Source of the DNA: a virus
Reading direction: 5' to 3' (one strand)
Virus genome (UHGV): UHGV-0212524
Length of the DNA stretch: 64,000 nt
The position numbers were made by a program, and so were the translations under genes. Below are positions 5,179 to 64,000 of the stretch, in pieces. The notes below the pieces were generated by a model, which saw only the letters and a list, made by a program, of their open reading frames with translations, was not told the origin of the DNA and did no database searches. Within the stretch, counting starts at the first letter, position 1, and the number at the start of each line of letters is the position of its first letter.

Positions 5179-6189
5179 ATGAACCGTCTTGATATTGATG
5201 TGGTACCCAGTATTACTGACCGTTCGTTGTATCAAAGGTCAGGACTACAAAAACTCATCACTTTTGAGAATAATACTGGTGTGCCAATTTACGTCACTGA
5301 AACCAGTGGCGGTAGCTTTATTTTAACTCCGTCCAAAAGCCCGGCTGATGAGCATGGGGTTGTTGTTTATGTAACGTATCAATCGTTCGGAAATCTGGCT
5401 AACCTGAACGGCTTTGCAGAAGTCTTACCAGAAAAACAATTCACTAAATTTTGTGCAGATTTAAAGGAGAAAGGAGAGGTCACACTCCGATACGTGGTTG
5501 ACGATATCGGTGCTTTATTACGTGGGGACTTGGTTGTATTGAAGCAGCTAGGATTCGCTTTTTCAATTACACCAGTTCGATTAGAAAGTACGCCACCGAG
5601 CGTAAGACCAGGAGGTGAGAGAACTGAATTTACATTAGGTGTTATTGTTGTGCAGCGTTACGACGATCCCGAACTATATCGTTGGATTAGATTCTACGGA
5701 ACGCGCATGGAAGTACAACCGATACTATCACGGTATTACGAACCGGGTGTGTATATGGTAATCGGAGGTGGAGACAAAGTAGAAGGGAGCAGGATGATTC
5801 ACTTCGAGTTCGATGACTTATTGTCACCGTTCCGTGTTTTTAAAGATAAAGAAACAGCCACCGCGTTTCGATGGCAAGAAACGTTACCGGATATTCACGA
5901 GATAAAGGAAAAGCTGGAAAGTCAATACAGAGAAAAATTAGAAAGTTTGGATTCGGCAAAAGACAAACTGGAATTAGAACACAAAAAACAACTACAGAAT
6001 TTGGCTTTGGAAAAGGAGCGTTTGACTCTAGCGTATAAACAACAAGAACTAGAAGCAAAGTCTCGGGCAGAGGCACGAAAAGAATTCTACGAGACTCGTT
6101 CTTACATTCGTAAAGATGGGTCAGACCTATTTAAATCAGTCCCTGCGTATCTGGCGGCGGGTGTCGCATTTATAGGGATGCTAAAATAA
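5179..6189 (+). CDS. hypothetical protein, coiled-coil region plus C-terminal hydrophobic segment (336 aa)
   Basis: ORF; K/E/L-rich heptad-like region (KEKLESQYREKLESL...) and C-terminal AYLAAGVAFIGML. Confidence 0.55.
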   Translation: MNRLDIDVVPSITDRSLYQRSGLQKLITFENNTGVPIYVTETSGGSFILTPSKSPADEHGVVVYVTYQSFGNLANLNGFAEVLPEKQFTKFCADLKEKGEVTLRYVVDDIGALLRGDLVVLKQLGFAFSITPVRLESTPPSVRPGGERTEFTLGVIVVQRYDDPELYRWIRFYGTRMEVQPILSRYYEPGVYMVIGGGDKVEGSRMIHFEFDDLLSPFRVFKDKETATAFRWQETLPDIHEIKEKLESQYREKLESLDSAKDKLELEHKKQLQNLALEKERLTLAYKQQELEAKSRAEARKEFYETRSYIRKDGSDLFKSVPAYLAAGVAFIGMLK

Positions 6190-6199
6190 GGAGCGTGGC

Positions 6200-7975
6200 G
6201 TGTTTAAAGATGCAATCAGAAAGCTTAAAGAGGATGGCAAAATAGTACCCTTTAACCGAGCGATTGCGGAAGGTGTCGGTTATACACAGGCCAAAGACGG
6301 TATACACGAGCGTGTTCAGATTATCTTGAAACGTGAGCTGGATTATCATCCTGTTGATAATCCGCGTGTTCCTGAAGGGCTGGCTGTATTAGGTGTACGG
6401 TTAATGTCACCGTTTGAAACGTTCATCTATAAGCTGTCTCGTTCTGAGAGCAGCAGAATGGATAGACGTCGTGGTGTGATGTCCATTGCGAATACTGATG
6501 CGTATATGGTCATGTCAACATTCCGTATTCCAGGAGATTCTCGACCGATCTCAAGACCGATTAACTTACCCTTTATCCGTCGTGGTGGTTTAATGAACTA
6601 TTACGGTACGACGTATCACGTTGCACCGGTTATTCACCAGCCAGGTATCTGTCGCGAACACGGTGGGGTATTTGTTAACTTTGACTTTAAACGTAAAGCC
6701 TCGTTGAAATTCTGTAAGCAACCTGTCCGTGTGTTAGTCAACGGTAAAAAAGAGGAGCTATTCTTACCAGGAACCAAAAACCTGTTCAAAGCGAAGAACG
6801 CAACACATCCTGATACTGACGAGAAACCGTTAATGTATTGGTTGTTCGGACGTTACGGATTTAAAGAAGCGATTAAACGCTATACTGGTGTTGACGTAGA
6901 AATTTATCCATCGTTTAAGATCCCAGAACTCGATCTCAACGAGAAAGTTGTAATCAGTTCCGGTGAATCGAAATATAACCGTTCGATAATGTACGCGGTT
7001 GTCGTACCCGCAGAAGCATTGCCGAACGTGGATAAAGTTGGTTGGGATCAAAACGAGCATTTGTTGCTGGCCGCAATTGCTGCGTTCTTCAAAGCCGCTC
7101 ACTACTATTGCAGTAAACAATCCATTAAGAACGGTAACGTCACGCCGCTCCCGCCGCTGTTTACCGCAATTAACGAGTTAGCGATGGAAGACGATATTGC
7201 TAACCTGAACTCTGCTCCGATTTGGCGTGAGATTCTGGGAAGAAGTATCGTAGGACTGAAACCTTCCGATATTGAGTTAGCGCACAGTATGGCGAAACAC
7301 TATACTGAATGCGATCGCTACGTTAACTCAACGTTCCGTGCAGAACTGAAGATGACCGATCCTGACATTCCAGACGACATGGATATGTTTGATTTCTTCT
7401 GGTATGCAACGAAACTGATGGTACGTACCCGTTTGACTAAACAGGGTGACATTCCGTCGATGTACGGAAAACGTTTAACCGTAACTGACTACTTACTGTT
7501 AGGTGACCGTGGGTTTACACCAACGGTAGCGGCTATTCGTTTCCATCTGGGACAAACGGAGAATCGTTCGCCAGAATCCTGCGCGAATATGATTCGTAGC
7601 GCACTCAATAAAGAAATTGTCACGAGTCTGGTGTTGCGTAATATCACTGGTAACGGCGGTGTAAGTTATTTCAACGCATCAACAGAGTCCATGGTACTAG
7701 GAGTATCCACACACGCGATTAGTCAAACTGAAACGGAATCTAAACGTAACAGCAAAGGCGGTAAAACGGTTAACCTTAATGACCGTACGAAACACGCTTC
7801 TGCATCGCATCTGGAGTGCGGTAACGTTTATTACATTCCGAAATCGTCCCCGTTCAAATGGGGTATCCTTAACCCGTACATGAAAACTAGCCGTCAGTTA
7901 GTGATGGTTCGTAATCCAAAACTTGACGAGTTAATCCAAGCAACCGAAGAAGATATTGCGAAGATTGGCCGTTAA
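6200..7975 (+). CDS. hypothetical protein (591 aa)
   Basis: long ORF in operon context. Confidence 0.6.
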   Translation: MFKDAIRKLKEDGKIVPFNRAIAEGVGYTQAKDGIHERVQIILKRELDYHPVDNPRVPEGLAVLGVRLMSPFETFIYKLSRSESSRMDRRRGVMSIANTDAYMVMSTFRIPGDSRPISRPINLPFIRRGGLMNYYGTTYHVAPVIHQPGICREHGGVFVNFDFKRKASLKFCKQPVRVLVNGKKEELFLPGTKNLFKAKNATHPDTDEKPLMYWLFGRYGFKEAIKRYTGVDVEIYPSFKIPELDLNEKVVISSGESKYNRSIMYAVVVPAEALPNVDKVGWDQNEHLLLAAIAAFFKAAHYYCSKQSIKNGNVTPLPPLFTAINELAMEDDIANLNSAPIWREILGRSIVGLKPSDIELAHSMAKHYTECDRYVNSTFRAELKMTDPDIPDDMDMFDFFWYATKLMVRTRLTKQGDIPSMYGKRLTVTDYLLLGDRGFTPTVAAIRFHLGQTENRSPESCANMIRSALNKEIVTSLVLRNITGNGGVSYFNASTESMVLGVSTHAISQTETESKRNSKGGKTVNLNDRTKHASASHLECGNVYYIPKSSPFKWGILNPYMKTSRQLVMVRNPKLDELIQATEEDIAKIGR

Positions 7976-8014: not shown

Positions 8015-9625
8015 ATGGCAAGCTACAGCGAAACTCGTGAATTTATCTTGAAAGTTTTTATGGCTAAACAGGATCAGCTTTTGAACTATCTCGTCGACGC
8101 GATGAACGCGAAGGGGATAAAAGAAGATCCGTTTGTTAATGCAGCGTGTATTGTGGGTAACTGGTATCTGCAAAACCGTCGCCCTAGTGACCAAACTAAC
8201 GTTGCGGTTATCGAAACCTTTAAGGCAACGCTCTATAGCCGTCTGTTAGGTTTAGGTCTGACTCCGTTGCAGCCGGACATTCATAGCGCGTTAGAGAAAG
8301 CGTTTGTGCTGGCGAATCAGCTTGCAGAAGAAGCACGTCGTGCTGGGCAGGGTGGATTCGGTGTGCGTACTGAACCGGTTAACTTCGGTATTCAGAATTC
8401 GCAGAATGCGCAACCAACTGCACCGATTCAGGGTTCTTCTGTACCGATGGCCAGCTATACTCCGGCCGGTGTAACAGTGCAACCTGTACAATCCGCTCCG
8501 GTATTCGGTGGTACTCCGCAAACTCAACCGCAAACGCAAACACAGCCTGCTATTATTCAGCCGACTGTTCCGCAGGAAGTGATGAACAAAAGCAAGCCTG
8601 TGGATATGAATAAGGAAACGATGGATGATATCATTCAACGTGCTAACCGTCCTCACCATGACATTTTGCGGGTAGAAATTGTGGAAGACTATTTAGATCA
8701 CGAGCTGAAAGAAAAGATTCAGCAAAACGTTGTTTCGCCGAAAGAAGCTAACACACGCGTCAAGAATTCTGTGTATGCAGAACATCGTGACTGGGGTGAT
8801 AAGGTTAGTGAACTGGTTGAAGATAACGACAAACAATATTGCTCGTATGACGATGCGGGTATCATGGTGAAAGTCGAAAGCGAATACCGTCTGTATCCGA
8901 TGGCACAGACTGAAACTTCTGCGGTGTATCTCCAGGAGTTTTATAGTTCGGTTCGCCAGATTATCGACGATCTCGATACCGTACGTGATATTGACGATAT
9001 TGAAAAGCTGATGGAGCGTGTTTCTAATGACGTCTTCAGACTGCGTGACCTTGCACAACGTTTGTTAATGTACTTCCTCACCAAATCTGATGAGAATGAA
9101 ACGTATCGTAGCGAATGTTCAGCGTTTACTCGTCGTTTCATTGCAACATTAACCGTGCTGGTTCACAACGCCATCTCCGTGGCATCTGCTTACGGTAAAG
9201 ACGTTCCGGGTACGAAATTCGTACAGTTGGAATGCTGCCTGGATGACATGACCTACTTTAAAGAGACAGTGTATGGTCGTACCATCGGTGAAAATGGTGT
9301 GAGCAAGTCTGCGGATTATTTTCGTGAAATGTTCCTGCTGATCGCGCGTTCTCTGCGTAAGCTGCACATTCGTCTGACCTGCGATAATAAAGCTATTGAA
9401 CTGTCTCAGGTAACGTACACGATTTCTCTGCAAGCAGATTATCAATCCGCTAACGATCGCCATATCGTGGAAATCTCATCGTTTGGTAACAGCTTCGAAC
9501 CGATTGTTTCAATCTACGAAGTCATTAACCAGAAAGCACCAGAAGCGTTCATTAAACTTAAGACCCCGTCTCATGTTTATTCGCTGCTGAGCACAGGTGA
9601 CGTGACTGCACCAGTTCGTTATTAA
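8015..9625 (+). CDS. hypothetical protein with Q/P/T-rich low-complexity linker (536 aa)
   Basis: long ORF; internal PQTQPQTQTQP stretch. Confidence 0.6.
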   Translation: MASYSETREFILKVFMAKQDQLLNYLVDAMNAKGIKEDPFVNAACIVGNWYLQNRRPSDQTNVAVIETFKATLYSRLLGLGLTPLQPDIHSALEKAFVLANQLAEEARRAGQGGFGVRTEPVNFGIQNSQNAQPTAPIQGSSVPMASYTPAGVTVQPVQSAPVFGGTPQTQPQTQTQPAIIQPTVPQEVMNKSKPVDMNKETMDDIIQRANRPHHDILRVEIVEDYLDHELKEKIQQNVVSPKEANTRVKNSVYAEHRDWGDKVSELVEDNDKQYCSYDDAGIMVKVESEYRLYPMAQTETSAVYLQEFYSSVRQIIDDLDTVRDIDDIEKLMERVSNDVFRLRDLAQRLLMYFLTKSDENETYRSECSAFTRRFIATLTVLVHNAISVASAYGKDVPGTKFVQLECCLDDMTYFKETVYGRTIGENGVSKSADYFREMFLLIARSLRKLHIRLTCDNKAIELSQVTYTISLQADYQSANDRHIVEISSFGNSFEPIVSIYEVINQKAPEAFIKLKTPSHVYSLLSTGDVTAPVRY

Positions 9626-13086: not shown

Positions 13087-15281
13087 TGGGGTCTCCGATG
13101 CAGAGATTTAACATATTTCGTGAACAGAACATCGCGTTGGCGAAATCACTGATTATTAAATCAGAATCAATCGCACAACAGATGAATCTGGCAATAACCG
13201 AGAACGGCGGTTTCGTTTCCGATAACCGAAGTACGTGGCGATACTACCTGCATTTAGCAGGACAACGTCACGAATGGGATAAGCCCATTTACATAACGTC
13301 GCTCGACACGCAAGAGCAGATAGAATTAACGACAGCCAACCTGTCCCGTCATAAAAAGACCTCAAACGTATTTCGTTCGAACGGCGGGTACATTGAGGAG
13401 CTGATCAGAACGTATCCTGACTACGCGATTTATATCCGGGGTGTGTTTAATCCGGTGGATATAAACTACGCCATCCGTGTGGCTGACTGCTCTATCCTCT
13501 ATTACGACAGTTCATTAGTGGAGTCGCAAGAGACGTCACTGATGTCGAGATTGGAAGACAGAATAAGGGCAGCTCACGTTCGCTATATGTCAGAAGGGTG
13601 GAAAGTTCACAACGATGCGTTCGTGTTAGCATTCTACTGTATTCTGTATCCGCAGTTACCCGGCATCATCGGGTATATTCGTTCTTCTTTACAGCATACC
13701 ACGGAAACGCATTCGTTTTACGTGACAGAGTTCTTAGCATCACACCAAGAACTTCACGAGTTTATGCCGTATTTGACCCAGAAACAGAAATTCATTCTTT
13801 ATCGGAATATTCGTTACTGGGAACGTAACTCAGGGAAAGAGGAGATTTTCGACTGGCAGATTGATGCGCTACTGACAGGTTGGGGGATGCCTGCGGTTGG
13901 GTATAATGTTGCGCAGCAAATACACGAACCGAAGGATGATGACGATTCCACGTTAACGCCGTTACCGATCGGTTATCAGCAATCGCTTAACTATACGGAA
14001 AAGGACTCTGGTCGAGACCTTGACATTGTAACAACGACGGACATCATCCAGAAGGAAGTCGCGTTAGCGTACAATAACCCGGCGTACGAACCGGAGTATC
14101 AGGAAGACTTAGATACCCGTTTAAGTTTAACGCAATACCCTAACCTGAAAACCAAACTCATTGAAGTTACAGCAGTCGACCCAGAAGCGATTGAGCGCTT
14201 CGAGTATCTGCATAACCTCTTTAACGAATGGGTACATCTCGTCGCGAAAGGGAAATACAACATTTACCACGAGATTCTTAACCCAACAAACGGGGATACC
14301 TTAAAGCTTAGCTCAAAAGAGTTATTGGCGCTGTTCTTGTACGCGGCGTATAAAGGGTATTCTGACGTTGCGTTAGAAAAGATTCCTGTGTTCAACGTGT
14401 TCGGGGTGTTAATCAAACGCTGGGTTTCATTCGATGAAATGGAACAACATTTAATCCCGAGCTGGGAAAACCGTTTCGATGCGTTGATTAACTATTATAC
14501 CGATACGCACACAGAAGTCGTCGGAACGATTCTTAGTGCTGATGAACTTTACGACACGGTTAATGAAATCATTACCCAGAAACGACGTCGTTGGCGTTAT
14601 AGCCAAAACCGTCGGAAGATTCCTGACCGTGCAGCGGGTATGATGCTGTTTAACTACCATTACCGTGATTATCGTTGCGATTTAAAACTGAACTATCGTA
14701 ACTACGATGAGTTCTTTAAAACGTTTGGGTTAGACTATACGTTGGTTTCGGCGGAGACGTGGCAAGACATTGCTATTGACGCATTTAACACCGCAACTAA
14801 CCTGGAAACCCGCGCAACGATTTCACAGTCTGAGATTCAGCGTGCAATGGTACGACTGATGACGAAGTTGTCATCCTACACCGTACATTTTGCTGCACGA
14901 ATGGGGTCAGATTCTTACGACGTTATGGACCCGCTCTGTCCTATCTTAGGGGATATCCCTATGAGTGGGGAGGGGTCGATTACCATTATTGAACCCCTCT
15001 TAGGCGTACAGCAAGTTACGCGTCACCAGTATATGTCCACCGACACTGTGTTACCGGCAGCGCCTGTTATTAAAGAACTGTCGATGCCACAGCACATCAA
15101 ACTCAGGATGAACATTTACATGGGTATCCGAGTGAAAGTAACACAGCAGGTTGTGGTGGATATTAACGAGCCGACTACCGGGGTTGTTAAAGTGAAATCT
15201 TCGCTTGACGATTGGACGTTAAACGAACAGGTGAAAATTAACGATCTGGACGGCTTCACGCTTGACCAGCTACCTAAGTGA
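13086..15281 (+). CDS. hypothetical protein (731 aa)
   Basis: long ORF, divergent from 10369..13086; no Walker A motif found. Confidence 0.6.
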   Translation: MGSPMQRFNIFREQNIALAKSLIIKSESIAQQMNLAITENGGFVSDNRSTWRYYLHLAGQRHEWDKPIYITSLDTQEQIELTTANLSRHKKTSNVFRSNGGYIEELIRTYPDYAIYIRGVFNPVDINYAIRVADCSILYYDSSLVESQETSLMSRLEDRIRAAHVRYMSEGWKVHNDAFVLAFYCILYPQLPGIIGYIRSSLQHTTETHSFYVTEFLASHQELHEFMPYLTQKQKFILYRNIRYWERNSGKEEIFDWQIDALLTGWGMPAVGYNVAQQIHEPKDDDDSTLTPLPIGYQQSLNYTEKDSGRDLDIVTTTDIIQKEVALAYNNPAYEPEYQEDLDTRLSLTQYPNLKTKLIEVTAVDPEAIERFEYLHNLFNEWVHLVAKGKYNIYHEILNPTNGDTLKLSSKELLALFLYAAYKGYSDVALEKIPVFNVFGVLIKRWVSFDEMEQHLIPSWENRFDALINYYTDTHTEVVGTILSADELYDTVNEIITQKRRRWRYSQNRRKIPDRAAGMMLFNYHYRDYRCDLKLNYRNYDEFFKTFGLDYTLVSAETWQDIAIDAFNTATNLETRATISQSEIQRAMVRLMTKLSSYTVHFAARMGSDSYDVMDPLCPILGDIPMSGEGSITIIEPLLGVQQVTRHQYMSTDTVLPAAPVIKELSMPQHIKLRMNIYMGIRVKVTQQVVVDINEPTTGVVKVKSSLDDWTLNEQVKINDLDGFTLDQLPK

Positions 15282-15288
15282 GAAAACC

Positions 15289-15816
15289 ATGGCATATCGC
15301 GTCGACTTAACGAAAACTCCGAAACAAATTCTGGTAGATCGTATTAACTACGTTTTCGGGGTATCCTATACCACTGACAACATCGATTTTAACGATAAAG
15401 GTGTGCAACCACTGACGAAAGACGAAGCCCGTCGTTACGGACTGGAATCGAAAGTGGCGGCCGACTTTAAAAACGGTGTTACAGGGAACCAGGAATTCAT
15501 CTTAACCCGTGTTGACCTGGCAACGTTCTTAGCTGACGAACCGGTTACAGTACCGAAAGGCGAAGTAACCAGCAGCCAAGAACTGGCAGACTATATCGTT
15601 GCTCAGACCGGTATTGATTTGACCCAAGACGACATTATGATCGAGCCTATCAGTGAGGAACTCGATTCTTATGATGTTCGCTTAGTCCCGAATCACTTAT
15701 CTTTTAAAGGAACGATTCCGGTCGTATTTACTGACCCCACACCACGTACGTTGGCGTCTCTTGTGACGAAACTTGCGTTGGACGGGTTCCGCCCTGGAGA
15801 ATTAATCAATGTCTAA
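15289..15816 (+). CDS. hypothetical protein
   Basis: ORF; ATG at 15289 preferred over the upstream TTG at 15262, which would overlap the preceding gene. Confidence 0.5.
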   Translation: MAYRVDLTKTPKQILVDRINYVFGVSYTTDNIDFNDKGVQPLTKDEARRYGLESKVAADFKNGVTGNQEFILTRVDLATFLADEPVTVPKGEVTSSQELADYIVAQTGIDLTQDDIMIEPISEELDSYDVRLVPNHLSFKGTIPVVFTDPTPRTLASLVTKLALDGFRPGELINV

Positions 15817-22247: not shown

Positions 22248-23381
22248 ATGTCAACGTTAGATAGCGACTTAGAAGTGCTTTGTGACGATTACGACCGACT
22301 CGTAGCGTTAGAATCCATTGGAGTAAAAGACAATTATCCGGCTATCGTTGCTATCCGTAAACGTTGGCTTTTGGATGATGTGGTTGTTGCGTCAGAGTCT
22401 GCGGCCATGATGCACCGTGCGCAGTTTTTGTCAGACACGGAACCTGATAAAGGGATAGGCAAAGCGGCTGCACGACTCACCGGACGTGCGGTTCGTGGCG
22501 TAAGTCGGGTAGCAGGGCGTGCTGCCAGTGCAGGTGCAAAAGCATCAGCGAATTTCGCAGGTAAACATTCCAAACAACTTGCTTTACGTTTTGTGGATTT
22601 TGCCGAAGTTGCGGGTAAAGAAGTCATTAAGGAATTAAAAGAAGCGACGTCTAAAGCAACGACCTTAGAGCGCAAACTGCAAAAGTTAAATGCTCGTCTA
22701 AGTTTAATCGGTGACAAAGACACCTTAAAACCGGTTGACTGCGACACGGGAAGCTGGACGACCAAAGTTTGTTTAGAAGACAAACCTAACGTAAAAGCGT
22801 GTATTGAGTTCAGTAAGAACCTGAACGCAATGGATGCGATGGTCAACGAGTATACCGTTAAAACGCGCACCATTATCGGTAAGAGCAAGAAAGTTACTGA
22901 GAGTGGCTTGGAGAAAGTAGGCCGCTCAACGAACTGGGCGATTAAACGTAGTGCAGGGTTGTTCGGTATTATCGATCCGTTTAAAACGGTGAAAGCGTAT
23001 CCGTGGCCAGGTAACGTGGTGGTCGTTGAACACGACAACGGTAAGATTGAGTGGGCGATTGCCCGTGATGGTGATTTTGGCCACACAATCAAATCTCTGA
23101 ACTTACACGAAATCGGTTCAGCTCTCGAAGCCGTTGAAAAAATTATCCGAGCTTTACGTCAGCGTGGTACGAAGCGACGTAGCGTTGGTTATACCGGTAT
23201 TTACGATGAAGTTCAGCGAATGAAAAAAGAGCTGAAGTCGTTAGACGGTCGTGAGTTACGCGATGCTACCGTTCGGTATAAGAACGCACTGCGTTTAGAA
23301 GATGCGTTTACTACCTCGTTAGTGCGTGTTGCGGAAGGCTTACTGGAATGGTGCAGGTTGTCGCTGATTGAGGTTAAATAA
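22248..23381 (+). CDS. hypothetical protein, paralog of 21357..22241
   Basis: shared C-terminal domain with the preceding gene. Confidence 0.55.
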   Translation: MSTLDSDLEVLCDDYDRLVALESIGVKDNYPAIVAIRKRWLLDDVVVASESAAMMHRAQFLSDTEPDKGIGKAAARLTGRAVRGVSRVAGRAASAGAKASANFAGKHSKQLALRFVDFAEVAGKEVIKELKEATSKATTLERKLQKLNARLSLIGDKDTLKPVDCDTGSWTTKVCLEDKPNVKACIEFSKNLNAMDAMVNEYTVKTRTIIGKSKKVTESGLEKVGRSTNWAIKRSAGLFGIIDPFKTVKAYPWPGNVVVVEHDNGKIEWAIARDGDFGHTIKSLNLHEIGSALEAVEKIIRALRQRGTKRRSVGYTGIYDEVQRMKKELKSLDGRELRDATVRYKNALRLEDAFTTSLVRVAEGLLEWCRLSLIEVK

Positions 23382-59000: not shown

Positions 59001-59052
59001 ACAAAAAATAATAAGTTTACCTACCTCCTTTACGGAGGTAGGTATTTTTTAT
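59001..59052. terminator. bidirectional terminator marking the boundary of the reverse-strand island
   Basis: TACCTACCTCC-TTTAC-GGAGGTAGGTA hairpin with A-tract upstream and T-tract downstream. Confidence 0.8.
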
Positions 59053-59723
59053 TCTAATCCCATTTCCAGCGCAAGTGCACGGATCGTGTCGTAGTCACGC
59101 TGTTCGGCGTACTGACGAATTTCACTTTTCTGGGCAGACATCGCGTTGTGTAGCTGTTGGTCACGTTTCACAATAGCCGCCATTAACGCTTTACATTGCT
59201 CCAGCGTAAACGGTTCTATACGTGTATTCGACGTGTCCAGCCAATAATCCGGTGCAGTTTCAGACTGGATATATTGACCCAGCATCTGACGAGAGGTTTC
59301 ATCCGCTTGGAAATGATGGCCGTCAACTTCGATATAACCGTGACGCTGGTCTTCGTATCGGTGTTCAATTTCCAACATGATTTTCTGGATATCTAAATAG
59401 ATATAGCGAGACGTCGAGCGCATATTCGAACGAATCTCGTCCAGGTTAATCTCCAGAACGTCAGTAATGAATTCTTTTGCTTTGTTCAGTGTAAACTTCG
59501 CCTCAATAGGAGACATTTCGTAAGTTTGCATCTGAGCTAAAGCTTCTTCATCACTCATCCCTTCAATCAACTTATAGTGCAGTAATGCACAGAACCCCGT
59601 ACGACCACGGTCTTCGTTACCTACACGTTCCATGTAGTTACCGTGGCGGTCAATTGGCAGATCGTGCGCGAAATAACGCGCCCGAATCTCTTCTTTCGTT
59701 AAGCTTTTGTTAGAAGCAGACAT
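59049..59723 (-). CDS. hypothetical protein (224 aa), last gene of the radical-SAM island
   Basis: minus-strand ORF co-oriented with the radical SAM genes. Confidence 0.5.
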   Translation of the reverse strand: MSASNKSLTKEEIRARYFAHDLPIDRHGNYMERVGNEDRGRTGFCALLHYKLIEGMSDEEALAQMQTYEMSPIEAKFTLNKAKEFITDVLEINLDEIRSNMRSTSRYIYLDIQKIMLEIEHRYEDQRHGYIEVDGHHFQADETSRQMLGQYIQSETAPDYWLDTSNTRIEPFTLEQCKALMAAIVKRDQQLHNAMSAQKSEIRQYAEQRDYDTIRALALEMGLE

Positions 59724-60265
59724 TCTTCTTCTCCAACCATACCTAATTCTTGCAGCAAGCCAAAATCAACCAACTGGAAGGTTTCAGAGAGATCGTTTGA
59801 CCACACCACGTTTGCAATGTCGCGTTCTTCATCCGTTAACTGTGGTAACACATTTTCGTTGAACGTCTGATGCTCTACGTAATAAGCATCGTAGATAGAC
59901 GTAGAACGCAAGCAACGGATTGGCAGACGCGGGAAAGACACCGCTAATGCAGCAATAGATGCGCTACTCGGATTCTCCGCAGAATAACGAAGCAATTCGA
60001 TCTTGTGGCGTGGGTAATCCAGTACGCGTTGTTCGAAACCCGGATTACGTTTTTCGATTTCCACAACGGACTCATGGCCTGTCTCTGTACAGTAAACGGG
60101 AATCATCACGTTTAGCCCGTACTTAATCAACAGAGGTTTAATCTCATCTGTAAAGTCTTCACCAGGGATAATGGCGTGAACGTTATAGAGTTTGTGTTTG
60201 CGCAGAAAACGCTCAACCAGGTGGAGTTTACGCTTCGTAAAATTGTGGATCAGAATTGATTTCAT
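59699..60265 (-). CDS. hypothetical protein (about 188 aa)
   Basis: minus-strand ORF; ATG at 60265 preferred (GAGG RBS) over 60289. Confidence 0.5.
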   Translation of the reverse strand: MKSILIHNFTKRKLHLVERFLRKHKLYNVHAIIPGEDFTDEIKPLLIKYGLNVMIPVYCTETGHESVVEIEKRNPGFEQRVLDYPRHKIELLRYSAENPSSASIAALAVSFPRLPIRCLRSTSIYDAYYVEHQTFNENVLPQLTDEERDIANVVWSNDLSETFQLVDFGLLQELGMVGEEECLLLTKA

Positions 60266-61562
60266 TATTTGCCTCAGTAGGTTGTGCATTTAACGCACGT
60301 TTAGCTTGCTCACGCTCACGCGTACATTTCGGACAGTAACAAACAGACGAATCGTGCAGTGACGATGCGTGGACGGTGCCTGTACGTTGACGCCAGTATT
60401 CTGCCGCCATCAGTTTTGCGGTCGTCCAACCACATTGACGTCGTTCAGCGTGGTACGCCTTACGGTCTTCCAGTGTCCCTTCACCGTTTTCGTAGGAAGC
60501 AGCTGCACAGCTCCCACAACCGTGTTTCATCGGACAACCTAAGCACGTTTCAGGATAGTTGGTGTATTGCGTCTGAATCTCTTCCAGCAGTTTCCCGCCG
60601 TCTAAGCTAACAAACTCACGACCGACTAACTCAAACACCGCAGAGCGTGACGTTACCGTTGACATGAATCGGTTACAACCATACACCTTACGGTCAAAAC
60701 CTAAACAAGTCATAAACGTCAACGTCCCACAGAACGGACGTAAACGTTCAGGGTTATAACGGTGCGTGTCGTCGTACAGCAGTTTATCACGCCAATCTGG
60801 GTCCCAAATCTGACGGAAATCCAGACCTTCAGGAATGATGTGGGACAACACGTTACGTGGATTGGTGTGCAGCCCTTTCTCAATCCAATAATCCATCACC
60901 TCGATCATCTGCAACGCAATATCCGTTGCCATGCTCCGTGGAAGGATATCTTCGTACGTCACGTTACCCGAAATCGTACCACCACCCGCAATATCGATTA
61001 ACGACTTCATACTCGCCGCGTAATGCGGGAGGGTTTCGGTTGTAAAGGTTGCCTTGATACCCAGTTCAGCAATACCCACTTCTTTTAAGTAGTTATAGCC
61101 ACGAACAGCGGCTTCGTAAGAACCCTGACGCGTCGTGGTAAAGATACGATAACGGTCATGGACTTCTGGCAGCCCGTCGATAGACACACCGATGGAGAGT
61201 TTGTCTTTCCAACGCTCGACGATCTCACGGTTTAACGGACGGTCTAACAACGTCCCGTTCGTGGAGATACTGAACATATACGGTCGATTATGCTCCTTAC
61301 ACAACTGTTCTGCGGTTTCAAACGCCGCTAACAGCAGTTTCGGTTGCATAAAAGGTTCGCCGCCGATGATATCAATAATGACGTCGATGTTCGGAATATC
61401 TTTATCACGCTCAAAACAGGCGTGTAAGAAATCCACGATATCCGCCGCTTTGTTATTACGCGGATACTTACGTTCGTAACAATACTCACAGTCTAAGTTA
61501 CAAGACAGGTTCGTTACCACCTGGTAAGTACGTTGTGAACGTGGTGCTTCATTATTGCTCAT
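60228..61562 (-). CDS. radical SAM enzyme with C-terminal SPASM-like Cys cluster (444 aa), peptide maturase candidate (ScfB/anSME-like)
   Basis: N-terminal CNLDCEYC (CxxxCxxC), IIGGEPFMQ (GGEP), C-terminal TCLGCPMKHGCGSC plus further Cys (QCGW, VCYCPKC). Confidence 0.8.
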   Translation of the reverse strand: MSNNEAPRSQRTYQVVTNLSCNLDCEYCYERKYPRNNKAADIVDFLHACFERDKDIPNIDVIIDIIGGEPFMQPKLLLAAFETAEQLCKEHNRPYMFSISTNGTLLDRPLNREIVERWKDKLSIGVSIDGLPEVHDRYRIFTTTRQGSYEAAVRGYNYLKEVGIAELGIKATFTTETLPHYAASMKSLIDIAGGGTISGNVTYEDILPRSMATDIALQMIEVMDYWIEKGLHTNPRNVLSHIIPEGLDFRQIWDPDWRDKLLYDDTHRYNPERLRPFCGTLTFMTCLGFDRKVYGCNRFMSTVTSRSAVFELVGREFVSLDGGKLLEEIQTQYTNYPETCLGCPMKHGCGSCAAASYENGEGTLEDRKAYHAERRQCGWTTAKLMAAEYWRQRTGTVHASSLHDSSVCYCPKCTREREQAKRALNAQPTEANNEINSDPQFYEA

Positions 61563-62469
61563 CTTTGCTTATCCTTTTACGCTCTGCATAAATCACGCGT
61601 TTAATGTACTCGTAAGCACCTACCCCGATAGAGCAAGCAAGCTGATTGCACCCACCGTTTAAGATAGCCGGTGCATTCTGAAGCTGATGTTCTGTTCCAT
61701 CTGCGTTCAAATACAACTCTTCGCTACAGACATTACACTCGTTTTCGAAAATCTTGCTGACAGACACGCCGCACGATTCTCCGGTTTGGACGTTCAGCCG
61801 TTCCATATTCTCCTGAATCTTTAAATAACCATAAACGAAGTTCATGATGTGATCGGGAGACAACGGTTTTGGCATTTGGGCATCAAACATCAGAGAAAAC
61901 GCACGGGGACGATAGTGGTACATCGCACGATGTAAATCCACAATATCTTCATACCAGCGCTTATCGGCTAACTGGTCACGCGTAATCACAGCCCAGGTTT
62001 GGAAGTTATCGAGTTCGTATAACGCTTCCAGTGCTTCGTGGCTATCCTCTTCAATAAAGCGCATAAAAGGGCGCTCAGAACGTTTGTAGCCATCAATTGA
62101 TACAAACACATGCTCAAAGTCTTTTAGCAGCGTAAGATGCGATTTACGCAGTTTTAAGCCGTTGGTATACAAGTGATGCTCAAGGTGCGGATGAGACACT
62201 TTCAGTTCGTTAACGAAATCCTCAATCTTACGTTGGACGAGTAGCGGTTCACCACCCGTCCAATGTATTTCCTTAATAGCTGGATTCTCTTGTAGTAATT
62301 CCAGGATACGTTCGCGTTGAAAAGCACGAGACGAATCTTCACGATTCATGTAGTAGGCTCCACCGCAGAAACTACAGTCTAGGTTACACTTAGACGTCGT
62401 AACTACGGACAATATAGTGGGTTTATCGTACAACTTCGTCGAGATCCTGGATTCCACATTGTCTATCAT
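61552..62469 (-). CDS. second radical SAM enzyme (305 aa) with C-terminal auxiliary Cys cluster
   Basis: KCNLDCSFCGG (CxxxCxxC), IHWTGGEPLLV (GGEP), C-terminal CGVSVS..ECNVCSE..GGCNQLACSIG. Confidence 0.75.
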   Translation of the reverse strand: MIDNVESRISTKLYDKPTILSVVTTSKCNLDCSFCGGAYYMNREDSSRAFQRERILELLQENPAIKEIHWTGGEPLLVQRKIEDFVNELKVSHPHLEHHLYTNGLKLRKSHLTLLKDFEHVFVSIDGYKRSERPFMRFIEEDSHEALEALYELDNFQTWAVITRDQLADKRWYEDIVDLHRAMYHYRPRAFSLMFDAQMPKPLSPDHIMNFVYGYLKIQENMERLNVQTGESCGVSVSKIFENECNVCSEELYLNADGTEHQLQNAPAILNGGCNQLACSIGVGAYEYIKRVIYAERKRISKDEQ

Positions 62470-62489: not shown

Positions 62490-63377
62490 TTAAATATAAT
62501 CGATGGCGAATAAAGGATCTTCGTCGAAGTTAACACCGGGTTTTAAAATCAGTGGCGAATTATACGCTTCCAGTAAACGGTTAAGTTCGTTGTAGCGGCT
62601 ATTCATCCGTTTGAGGTCTTCTAAGGTCACAACACGGTCAAGCATCGGCTTAACTGCTTCGGCTTCTTCGTCAGTCAGTTTAACTTTCGACAGCAAGAAG
62701 CTGACGAGTTTGGAAATGTCCGCTTCGGTAGCTGGGCTCTGACCAAAACGTACCTGAACCATATGCTGCATCCACGGTTTACGAATGCGTTTCGTAATCA
62801 CGTGTTCGTCAGTGATGGCTTTCCAAACCGAACGTTCACGAATCCATTCGAACTTATAGCTGTACGCCATTAAGTCGGCCAGATGCGTAATTCCGAGTTC
62901 TTGATAGCCTTCAATATCGATATACGGTTCCGTATCAAAATACTCTTTGGTATCTTTTTCAACCAACGCGTAATAGTTAGGGAACGCACCCAGGTAGTCT
63001 GGACTCCACCAACGACGGGCCATTGGTTTAGCATCGAGTTCTTCAAACGGTGTGAACATAAGTTCTAAGTCAACTGTATTATTTAACACACCGTCGCTAA
63101 AGAAATATTTACCGTCGATAAGTTTACCGCGTTGTGAGTTGTCACCGGTAAAGACAACGATGCTTTCGCCAACCATATCACGAATTTTGAACGTATTCTC
63201 AACCGTAAAGTTGTCACGATTAGCGATATGACGACCACGCACTTTCGGCCATTCCCCAGGAATCATGGCAATTAAGCGTACATCATCAGCAAGATGGTGA
63301 CGTACCGAATCAGGGGAAGAGATGTGAAGTGGATGATTGAACGTTGTCGTATATGCAAGATGTAGATCGTTCTTCAT
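62490..63377 (-). CDS. hypothetical protein (295 aa) between the precursor genes and the radical SAM genes
   Basis: minus-strand ORF in the island; no recognisable motif. Confidence 0.55.
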   Translation of the reverse strand: MKNDLHLAYTTTFNHPLHISSPDSVRHHLADDVRLIAMIPGEWPKVRGRHIANRDNFTVENTFKIRDMVGESIVVFTGDNSQRGKLIDGKYFFSDGVLNNTVDLELMFTPFEELDAKPMARRWWSPDYLGAFPNYYALVEKDTKEYFDTEPYIDIEGYQELGITHLADLMAYSYKFEWIRERSVWKAITDEHVITKRIRKPWMQHMVQVRFGQSPATEADISKLVSFLLSKVKLTDEEAEAVKPMLDRVVTLEDLKRMNSRYNELNRLLEAYNSPLILKPGVNFDEDPLFAIDYI

Positions 63378-63498: not shown

Positions 63499-63708
63499 TT
63501 ACCTGCCTCCCCCTGCACCTTTACTACAGCTACCACTGCACGCCCAGCTACAACTCCCATTACAGTTATAGTGAGTTAACGGTAATCCTGCCAAGTTATT
63601 CGTTGAGGACACCGTACCCTGATTAGCAATATAGTTATTCGCATCTGTGGTTTTAATGTAGCCTTCAACCTGACCGATTCTGTCTCGAATATTTTTGAGG
63701 GAAATCAC
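63499..63708 (-). CDS. Cys-rich small ORF (69 aa), RiPP precursor candidate
   Basis: GTG start with strong GGAGGT RBS; 46-aa Cys-free leader then C-terminal core HYNCNGSCSWACSGSCSKGAGGGR with C-x3-C spacing. Confidence 0.5.
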   Translation of the reverse strand: MISLKNIRDRIGQVEGYIKTTDANNYIANQGTVSSTNNLAGLPLTHYNCNGSCSWACSGSCSKGAGGGR

Positions 63709-63718
63709 TTCTCACCTC

Positions 63719-64000
63719 CTATCGTCCTGTGCACGACGAGCAGCCACCGGTACAGCTACTGGAGCACGATGCTGTACAGCCGCCCGTACAAGTGCCCGAG
63801 CACGCATTAGCGCACCCACCCGAACAACTCCCCGAACACCCTGAACAGCTACTTGAACACCCTGACGTACAGTTTGCAGAGCATGAAGAACCGCAACCAC
63901 CAGACGCGTTCCCTGTACAGCCACCAGAGCAACTCGAGCAGGTAAAGGAACACGTGCCCGCACAGTCATAATGCGCACGATTCCGACCACCGAACAGGTC
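63719..64000 (-). CDS. Cys-rich repetitive ORF (5' end beyond the window), second precursor candidate
   Basis: hand translation of the minus strand gives ..DLFGGRNRAHYDCAGTCSFTCSSCSGGCTGNASGGCGSSCSANCTSGCSSSCSGCSGSCSGGCANACSGTCTGGCTASCSSSCTGGCSSCTGR-stop; shares HY(N/D)CxGxCS(W/F)xCS and GR-stop with the 69-aa ORF; frame absent from the supplied ORF track. Confidence 0.45.
   Translation of the reverse strand, partial: DLFGGRNRAHYDCAGTCSFTCSSCSGGCTGNASGGCGSSCSANCTSGCSSSCSGCSGSCSGGCANACSGTCTGGCTASCSSSCTGGCSSCTGR

Follow-up and report, generated by a model that had tools for sequence, protein, structure and literature searches.

The far end of a 64,000-nt stretch of viral DNA (UHGV virus genome UHGV-0212524, which we call the window) carries the last part of an array of three genes, A-B-C, from a giant SPN3US-like (jumbo) bacteriophage; gene A and the start of gene B lie beyond position 64000. 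The genes encode paralogous cysteine-rich proteins and are followed on the same strand by two radical-SAM genes. Our main reading, to which we give a probability of roughly 65%, is that a radical-SAM maturase acts on A, B, and C and would turn them into thioether ladders, and that they belong to a divergent jumbo-phage version of the CXXX-repeat system; the product most likely acts late, and a role at the virion tail is our leading guess.

The A-B-C array and its reading frame

The window is ~73% identical in nucleotide sequence to SPN3US and to Erwinia phage pEa_SNUABM_29. The array and the genes downstream of it comprise the following features:

63719..64000, minus strand: 3' part of gene B, its last 93 codons plus TAG; the start is beyond the window
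63714..63720, minus strand: Shine-Dalgarno sequence AGGAGGT of gene C, read from the sequence
63499..63708, minus strand: gene C, the 69-aa paralog, with a GTG start, from the ORF list
62490..63377, minus strand: 295-aa conserved partner, homolog of SPN3US gp165, phrog_8030
61552..62469, minus strand: radical-SAM enzyme of 305 aa, homolog of SPN3US gp164 (Pfam Radical_SAM, 8e-15)
60228..61562, minus strand: radical-SAM/SPASM enzyme of 444 aa, homolog of SPN3US gp163
59699..60265, minus strand: 188-aa protein, homolog of SPN3US gp162, phrog_7988, whose ORF overlaps the end of that for the SPASM enzyme
59049..59723, minus strand: DUF4376 protein of 224 aa, homolog of SPN3US gp161 (Pfam DUF4376, 5.8e-11)

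A sequence-only reading of the window had described two tandem Cys-rich ORFs on the minus strand at 63499-64000, and translation confirmed them. The product of gene C is MISLKNIRDRIGQVEGYIKTTDANNYIANQGTVSSTNNLAGLPLTHYNCNGSCSWACSGSCSKGAGGGR, in which a Cys-free leader of the type also found in A and B is followed by HYNCNGSCSWACSGSCSKGAGGGR; the four Cys have CxxxC spacing, and the minimal core that contains them is CNGSCSWACSGSC. The strong ribosome-binding site noticed in that reading is AGGAGGT at 63720-63714, 5 nt before the GTG and overlapping the stop codon of B (63719-63721). In minus-strand frame 1 from 64000, B reads DLFGGRNRAHYDCAGTCSFTC...CSSCTGR*, and the HYxCxGxCS[F/W] onset and the GR-stop ending that B and C were said to share are real. 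The earlier count of about 30 Cys in B was an overestimate: we counted 20 in the 93 residues within the window.

Gene B runs off the window, as had been noted, and its remainder was recovered from contig L003, whose sequence over this region matches the window at 97% identity, with 16 differences in 502 nt. The full gene lies at L003:9595-9990 and begins with an ATG preceded by GGGGGAAG. No stop interrupts the frame just beyond the window or anywhere within the 131 aa, which comprise a leader of ~50 aa and an 81-aa core; full-length B also has 20 Cys, all of them in the core. L003 further revealed that there are three paralogs and not two, with gene A (130 aa, 21 Cys) directly upstream of B. 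A conserved hairpin, which may be a terminator or part of a promoter, lies upstream of A. Two Logan contigs encode a protein identical at every residue to the 69-aa C. All three proteins match phrog_6085 (annotated as function unknown) with E values of 1e-25 to 1e-42 (B, 1.6e-42; C, 1.6e-25). Judged from their sequences, A, B, and C are paralogs that each consist of a Cys-free leader of ~45-50 aa and a core made up of C-[S/T]-G-[S/G/T] units. A tRNA and Rfam scan of the window gave no matches.

The gene order virion protein, A, B, C, 295-aa protein, radical-SAM enzyme, radical-SAM/SPASM enzyme, ~190-aa protein, and DUF4376 protein is kept in Seoulvirus, Erskinevirus, Machinavirus, and Derbicusvirus. 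By tblastn, the leader of B was found in 55-73 phage records, all from this jumbo-phage group and including Cronobacter phage CR5. With E values up to 10, the matches listed for the leader (60 of 73) were exclusively at orthologous jumbo-phage positions, and a suspected resemblance of the leader motif NNADxFGG..HY to tail-fibre repeats is thus unsupported. Gene C has orthologs in all four genera and differs from its close relatives by 24 synonymous and 0 non-synonymous changes; the Derbicusvirus copy retains only 2 Cys, which counts against our main reading.

The sequence-only reading had also remarked that the region is GC-rich and open in three frames. Both are borne out: GC is 0.57 at 63750-63999 versus 0.42-0.47 nearby, and the same DNA carries, besides the Cys frame, a 92-aa Arg/Val frame (63712..63990, minus strand) and an 80-aa P/E/Q frame (63729..63971, plus strand) that is antisense to the Cys frame. 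It is these other two frames that have been deposited in GenBank. There, SPN3US gp166 is the Arg/Val frame over B, with A and C unannotated, and several Erwinia phage records carry antisense P/E/Q-rich ORFs in place of the Cys frame; PHROGs holds the correct Cys-frame family, phrog_6085.

We consider it extremely improbable that the Arg/Val or the antisense P/E/Q frame is the real gene and the Cys frame is untranslated. In a comparison with two close relatives, 58 codon differences are synonymous and 2 non-synonymous when read in the Cys frame; the Arg/Val frame gives 0 and 60, and the antisense frame that shares third positions with the Cys frame gives 50 and 10. A wider comparison covered eight phages from the four genera, in which synonymous sites are near saturation (pS 0.73-0.77). 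In these, the pN/pS of the Cys frame is 0.27-0.34, the frame is free of stops, and A and B each keep 20 invariant Cys columns; the Arg/Val frame has a pN/pS of 1.3-1.6 and 14-24 stops, none of them within the cores; and the antisense wobble-sharing frame has a pN/pS of 0.37-0.43 and 11-27 stops. The low antisense pN/pS could be read in favour of that frame, but it is an expected echo, because its third positions are shared with the true frame. Only in the Cys frame is there a conserved start preceded, in most orthologous genes, by a purine-rich stretch resembling a Shine-Dalgarno sequence. As judged from substitution patterns, stops, and conserved starts, the Cys frame, first picked from the paralogy of the ORFs alone, is the one that encodes A, B, and C; the Arg/Val and antisense frames are rejected as genes on account of their substitutions and stops.

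The annotation affects how the virion proteome is to be read. Upstream of A are homologs of the SPN3US virion protein gp167 and of gp168-170, described as "baseplate/tail fiber candidates" (PMC5694885). The SPN3US virion proteome lists gp167-gp173 and does not list gp162-gp166 (PMC5694885, Suppl. Table 1), an absence that counts against our main reading. The Cys-frame ORFs were probably not searchable in it, because the GenBank annotation of SPN3US leaves A and C blank and gives B in another frame. Absence from the virion proteome thus says little about A, B, and C, which were unannotated in the Cys frame and whose cores lack tryptic sites, while the absence of gp162-gp166 fits the enzymes being non-structural.

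Repeat cores and the radical-SAM genes downstream

In the 64-kb window, read in all six frames, B alone has C-x2-3 runs of at least four units, and 2000 shuffles of 63499-64000 never produced one of at least five; the repeats exceed what chance would give. TRF sees one weak 21-nt repeat of 2.4 copies in the DNA. The periodicity therefore resides at the protein level, and recent DNA slippage was rejected as the origin of the repeat. The only curated family matched above noise is TIGR04114, an 18-residue CXXX repeat with a cut-off of 20 bits, and the scores lie on both sides of that value: A scores 20.5, B of Phobos 25.6, A of SPN3US 19.8, and B of the window 17.6. The window's B thus falls below the cut-off and C has no match, which counts against our main reading. 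Matches of the target proteins to TIGR04117 are noise only (E 0.09-0.8).

The spacing of the cysteines resembles that of 90 other viral CXXX proteins. A spacing of four residues accounts for 82% of Cys-Cys intervals in jumbo-phage A and B and for 72% in the other viral proteins, and a spacing of three for 17% and 24%; the preferred unit, C-[S/T]-G-[S/G/T], is common to both sets. The jumbo-phage cores are 26% Cys with small neighbouring residues, have almost no Asp or Glu, and are without Lys or Arg for tryptic cleavage.

Such a composition could also suit uncross-linked cores that bind metal or Fe-S clusters as a metallothionein-like protein, a cluster or sulfur reservoir serving the radical-SAM enzymes, or a metal-stapled fibre. 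Metallothioneins are likewise small and ~25% Cys with small or polar residues in between, and three proteins with a radical-SAM fold that need Fe-S clusters are encoded alongside. The C-x-C motif that marks metallothioneins, however, has a frequency of 0% in the jumbo-phage cores, where four- and three-residue spacings prevail, and A, B, and C have a ~50-aa Cys-free leader and a radical-SAM maturase that metallothioneins do not. They match none of the Pfam and NCBIfam metallothionein families, and the metallothionein-like comparison proposed from the sequence alone did not hold up. We regard metal binding as quite unlikely, also in view of the nearest characterised relatives of the neighbouring SPASM enzyme, PapB and CteB, which act on Cys-containing peptides.

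That enzyme is part of a co-oriented string of genes from C to the DUF4376 gene, several of which overlap at their ends; no more than ~2 kb separates the end of C (63499) from the start of the SPASM gene (61562), which has the same orientation. The 444-aa protein has TIGR04115, "radical SAM peptide maturase, CXXX-repeat target family", as its best NCBIfam match (E 5.6e-36; 124.8 bits, with a cut-off of 350), followed by the PapB ranthipeptide maturase (7.5e-32, also below the curated cut-off). For comparison, the bona fide enzymes of the viral loci L012 and L011 score 381.8 and 316.7 bits for TIGR04115. The alignment of the 444-aa enzyme with bona fide TIGR04115 members runs end to end at 22-25% identity, and all three Cys-cluster motifs, including CxxxCxxC and every SPASM Cys, are conserved. 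The SPASM region has two auxiliary [4Fe-4S] motifs, with the invariant C279 and C297 (alignment positions) and CxxCx5CxxC...C. Its closest solved structure is CteB (5WGG), a SCIFF thioether maturase. We presume that the 444-aa enzyme is what matures A, B, and C.

The other genes of the string are less readily placed. The 305-aa radical-SAM enzyme has the motif CNLDCSFC and three invariant C-terminal Cys (C245, C248, and C274) that possibly form an auxiliary cluster, and its NCBIfam matches are generic, to no specific family. The 295-aa protein gave a confident structure model for which no fold relative was found, and the 188-aa protein has a predicted fold like a radical-SAM core without the CxxxCxxC motif. 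The DUF4376 gene is the last of the string, and its position is conserved in all relatives; whether its product is part of the system is uncertain. We recognised no RRE (PqqD-like), protease, or exporter in the cluster, which counts against our main reading; nor was an immunity gene recognised. A Pfam search for an RRE found nothing in the jumbo-phage partners or in the small partner proteins of other phages, and the radical-SAM motif of the 444-aa enzyme starts at residue 21, too close to the N terminus to accommodate one. A defence or anti-defence system was considered and rejected, as PADLOC gives only generic viperin-like matches to the radical-SAM core.

The interpretation reached from the sequence alone, RiPP-like Cys-rich precursors, is supported by the two radical-SAM genes 1-2 kb downstream, one of them with a SPASM domain. 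Its details need adjusting. The context is RiPP-like, but A and B, at ~130 aa and 20-21 Cys, are not short peptide precursors. The suggested likeness to ranthipeptides agrees with PapB being among the best matches, while that to SCIFF did not stand, and the precise family is TIGR04114/TIGR04115. A SCIFF precursor has ~45 aa and six C-terminal Cys, and CteB carries an RRE at its N terminus; the phage precursors, in contrast, have 69-131 aa and 4-21 Cys, and the 444-aa enzyme scores 55.5 bits against the SCIFF maturase family TIGR03974 (cut-off 425).

CXXX-repeat modules in other viruses and in bacteria

The precomputed Pfam tag of A's distant homologs is PF27846 (tSAM_targ_Cxxx_rpt); these homologs lie directly after a tail-fibre-like protein in myovirus-type tail modules, with the order tape-measure chaperone, tape measure, sheath initiator, and baseplate wedge. 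In L011 and L012, the PF27846 homolog is followed by a TIGR04115-type enzyme. Scanning IMG/VR with an alignment of such enzymes confirmed them on at least 234 viral contigs. Of the best 80 of these loci, 79 have an adjacent CXXX-run ORF, defined as a same-strand ORF with at least five consecutive C-x2-3 units within ~2 kb of the enzyme; these ORFs encode 130-560 aa with 17-126 Cys. In bacterial species-representative genomes, only about the top 16 loci, from Clostridia/Oscillospirales and Margulisbacteria, are true relatives, and 13 of the 16 have CXXX ORFs, with up to 122 Cys. As a negative control, 64 more distant SPASM loci included ~4 with a CXXX ORF. The pairing in 79 of the best 80 viral loci points to a relation of enzyme and substrate and argues against cores that merely bind metal.

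The jumbo-phage array shares with this CXXX-repeat system (TIGR04114/PF27846, TIGR04115, and TIGR04117 paralogs) the tandem Ser/Thr/Gly-rich C-x-x-x units, the spacing statistics, a target gene that adjoins a co-oriented SPASM radical-SAM enzyme, and the tail-region context in phages. It departs from the system in several respects. The enzyme reaches 124.8 of the 350 bits of the CXXX-repeat maturase cut-off, at the low identity given above. The targets have 69-131 aa, and their ~50-aa leader is unrelated to the ~105-aa N-domain of the other proteins, for which we derived the motif F..LKARVKAEM.RR..GSL..Y in viruses; hhalign of the jumbo-phage leaders with this N-domain gave a probability of 0.65%, i.e., no homology was detected. 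The enzyme's score and this missing leader homology count against our main reading. There are three tandem paralogous targets, and the ~100-aa small partner gene usual in the CXXX-repeat system is missing; instead, the jumbo phages have a second radical-SAM enzyme, the 295-aa protein, and the radical-SAM-fold protein without the cluster motif. Because it falls short of the maturase cut-off, lacks the N-domain and the small partner, and has additional genes, the jumbo-phage system is, on these sequence comparisons, a divergent version of the CXXX-repeat/radical-SAM pair.

Full-text literature searches turned up no experimental study of the CXXX-repeat system, which is defined bioinformatically, and nothing about these phage genes or about radical-SAM peptides of phages. 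The terms "radical SAM", "RiPP", "cysteine-rich", and "thioether" are all absent from a 2026 review of jumbo phages.

A PHROG census of the neighbours at 43 dereplicated viral loci showed that the annotated upstream families are almost all tail, baseplate, or tail-fibre families (the exception is a peptide deformylase) and that the downstream families are mostly endolysins. The module therefore sits at the junction of tail-fibre and lysis genes, a position that fits a last fibre component and a cargo slot alike. The slot between tail-fibre and endolysin genes is a classic position for cargo genes.

The products may accordingly be diffusible, non-structural RiPPs, i.e., bacteriocin-like, signalling, or host-manipulating cargo ("moron") genes whose products are released at lysis, a reading that we think unlikely. 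A leader-plus-core layout and a radical-SAM/SPASM maturase are hallmarks of RiPP clusters, the module of other phages lies between tail-fibre genes and endolysins, and gp162-gp166 are not among the SPN3US virion proteins (PMC5694885). Cores of warfare peptides diversify fast, however, whereas the phrog_6085 proteins of the four genera are constant in length and in 20 Cys columns, and related targets are protein-sized, with up to 370-670 aa and 60-126 Cys. No protease, exporter, or immunity gene was recognised, and the gene block examined showed neither an integrase nor a repressor. SPN3US is a virulent phage, so the logic of lysogenic conversion would not apply.

Proposed maturation, role, and significance

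In our main reading, A, B, and C would be modified by the enzymes whose genes come directly after them in the same orientation, namely by the SPASM maturase, which is related to the CXXX-repeat family and to PapB and CteB, and possibly also by the second radical-SAM enzyme. Each Cys thiol would be held at an auxiliary Fe-S cluster of the maturase while a 5'-deoxyadenosyl radical takes a hydrogen atom from a nearby residue, and a thioether would then be closed, one unit after another. A floppy Gly/Ser/Cys-rich chain would thereby become a ladder of small, reduction-proof rings.

We propose this chemistry by analogy with PapB (PMC12373016) and CteB. In both PapA/PapB (freyrasin) and CteA/CteB, the maturase is likewise a SPASM radical-SAM enzyme. 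PapA carries repeated C-x-x-x-X units, each of which is made into a small thioether ring, and PapB, whose auxiliary cluster binds the Cys, forms six thioethers within repeated CXXXD motifs (PMC12373016). PapB requires an Asp or Glu acceptor (PMC12373016), whereas the phage cores have essentially none; the acceptor must therefore differ from that of PapB, which counts against our main reading.

The product would most likely be active late in infection, and our leading guess, first among the possible roles yet held with low absolute confidence, is that it acts on or with the tail apparatus of the virion. The number and positions of the Cys are fixed across genera, which suggests a scaffold-like product and not a fast-evolving toxin, as do the protein-sized relatives, the lack of a recognised protease, exporter, or immunity gene, and the location among virion genes. 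A bolder form of this idea, which we put forward tentatively and think rather doubtful, is that CXXX-repeat proteins are tail-fibre or baseplate parts that radical-SAM enzymes turn into thioether-laddered, reduction-proof rods, of which the SPN3US-like system would be a three-chain miniature. We found no report of radical-SAM modification of a virion protein.

Three conserved genes of a well-studied model family of jumbo phages, SPN3US and the Erwinia "Agrican-like" phages, with matches in 73 GenBank records, have thus been annotated in wrong frames or not at all, and because of this they have probably been invisible to proteomics and genetics. The orphan CXXX-repeat radical-SAM system is now tied to phages, on at least 234 viral contigs and usually after tail-fibre or baseplate genes, and phages of E. 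coli and Salmonella offer a tractable setting for proteins with 20-126 Cys. If the thioether ladders are real, they would be a new type of scaffold for peptide engineering, and if the proteins are virion parts, they would represent a new kind of virion chemistry. Both the chemistry and the role are directly testable with available phages.

Annotation of the Cys-rich genes

Across the genes of the three paralogous Cys-rich proteins A, B, and C, the GenBank records of four loci show ORFs in the wrong frames:
L002 (SPN3US, NC_027402), 8238-9267, mis-annotated span
L001, 7412-8434, mis-annotated span
L006, 5700-6437, mis-annotated span
L007, 5589-6410, mis-annotated span

In the SPN3US record B is covered by gp166/ACQ60_gp100, an ORF in the Arg/Val frame, and neither A nor C is annotated. 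For pEa_SNUABM_29, Huxley, and Phobos, the ORFs deposited across A and/or B are antisense.

A hairpin upstream of gene A

On the contig that is 97% identical to the window and extends past its end, gene A is preceded by a strong hairpin:
L003:9137-9180, hairpin followed by a U-run, just past the window's end, between the gp167-like virion gene and A

This hairpin is kept in five phages (L003 and the equivalents in L001, L002, L005, and L007; z -3.2 to -5.6), with stem sequences that differ among them and UAUG in every loop. It may serve as a terminator, or as terminator and promoter element in one.

Other Cys repeats and RNA genes

Outside the Cys-rich genes, the window has a single run of three or more C-x2-3 units, at 22580-22612 (+). 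This stretch, CFTFCGFCRSC, is short, hydrophobic, and unrelated, and was taken as a chance match. Neither tRNA genes nor Rfam families at gathering threshold were found across window positions 1-64000.

Among CXXX-repeat genes elsewhere, two overlapping frames share one gene in a metagenomic myovirus-like contig:
L011:5994-7066, split CXXX-repeat gene
L010:9492-10169, sister contig

The split reflects either a frameshift or a misassembly; in the sister contig, which encodes an identical CXXX-repeat protein, radical-SAM genes are absent within 10 kb. The extremes of the family include a protein of 522 aa with 126 Cys (L068:5994-7562) and Margulisbacteria/Termititenax proteins (L105-L108) of about 670 aa with 112-122 Cys, and viral contig L038 carries two CXXX genes in tandem and a second radical-SAM/CXXX pair (5630-7534, 13474-15810).

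Gene C in Derbicusvirus

Gene C is also encoded by the Derbicusvirus phages Phobos and EarlPhillipIV:
L007:6409-6618, gene C
L008:6409-6618, gene C

These proteins retain the leader, and their Cys are down to two (CNGSCSWSSSGG...); C therefore does not share the constraint on A and B.
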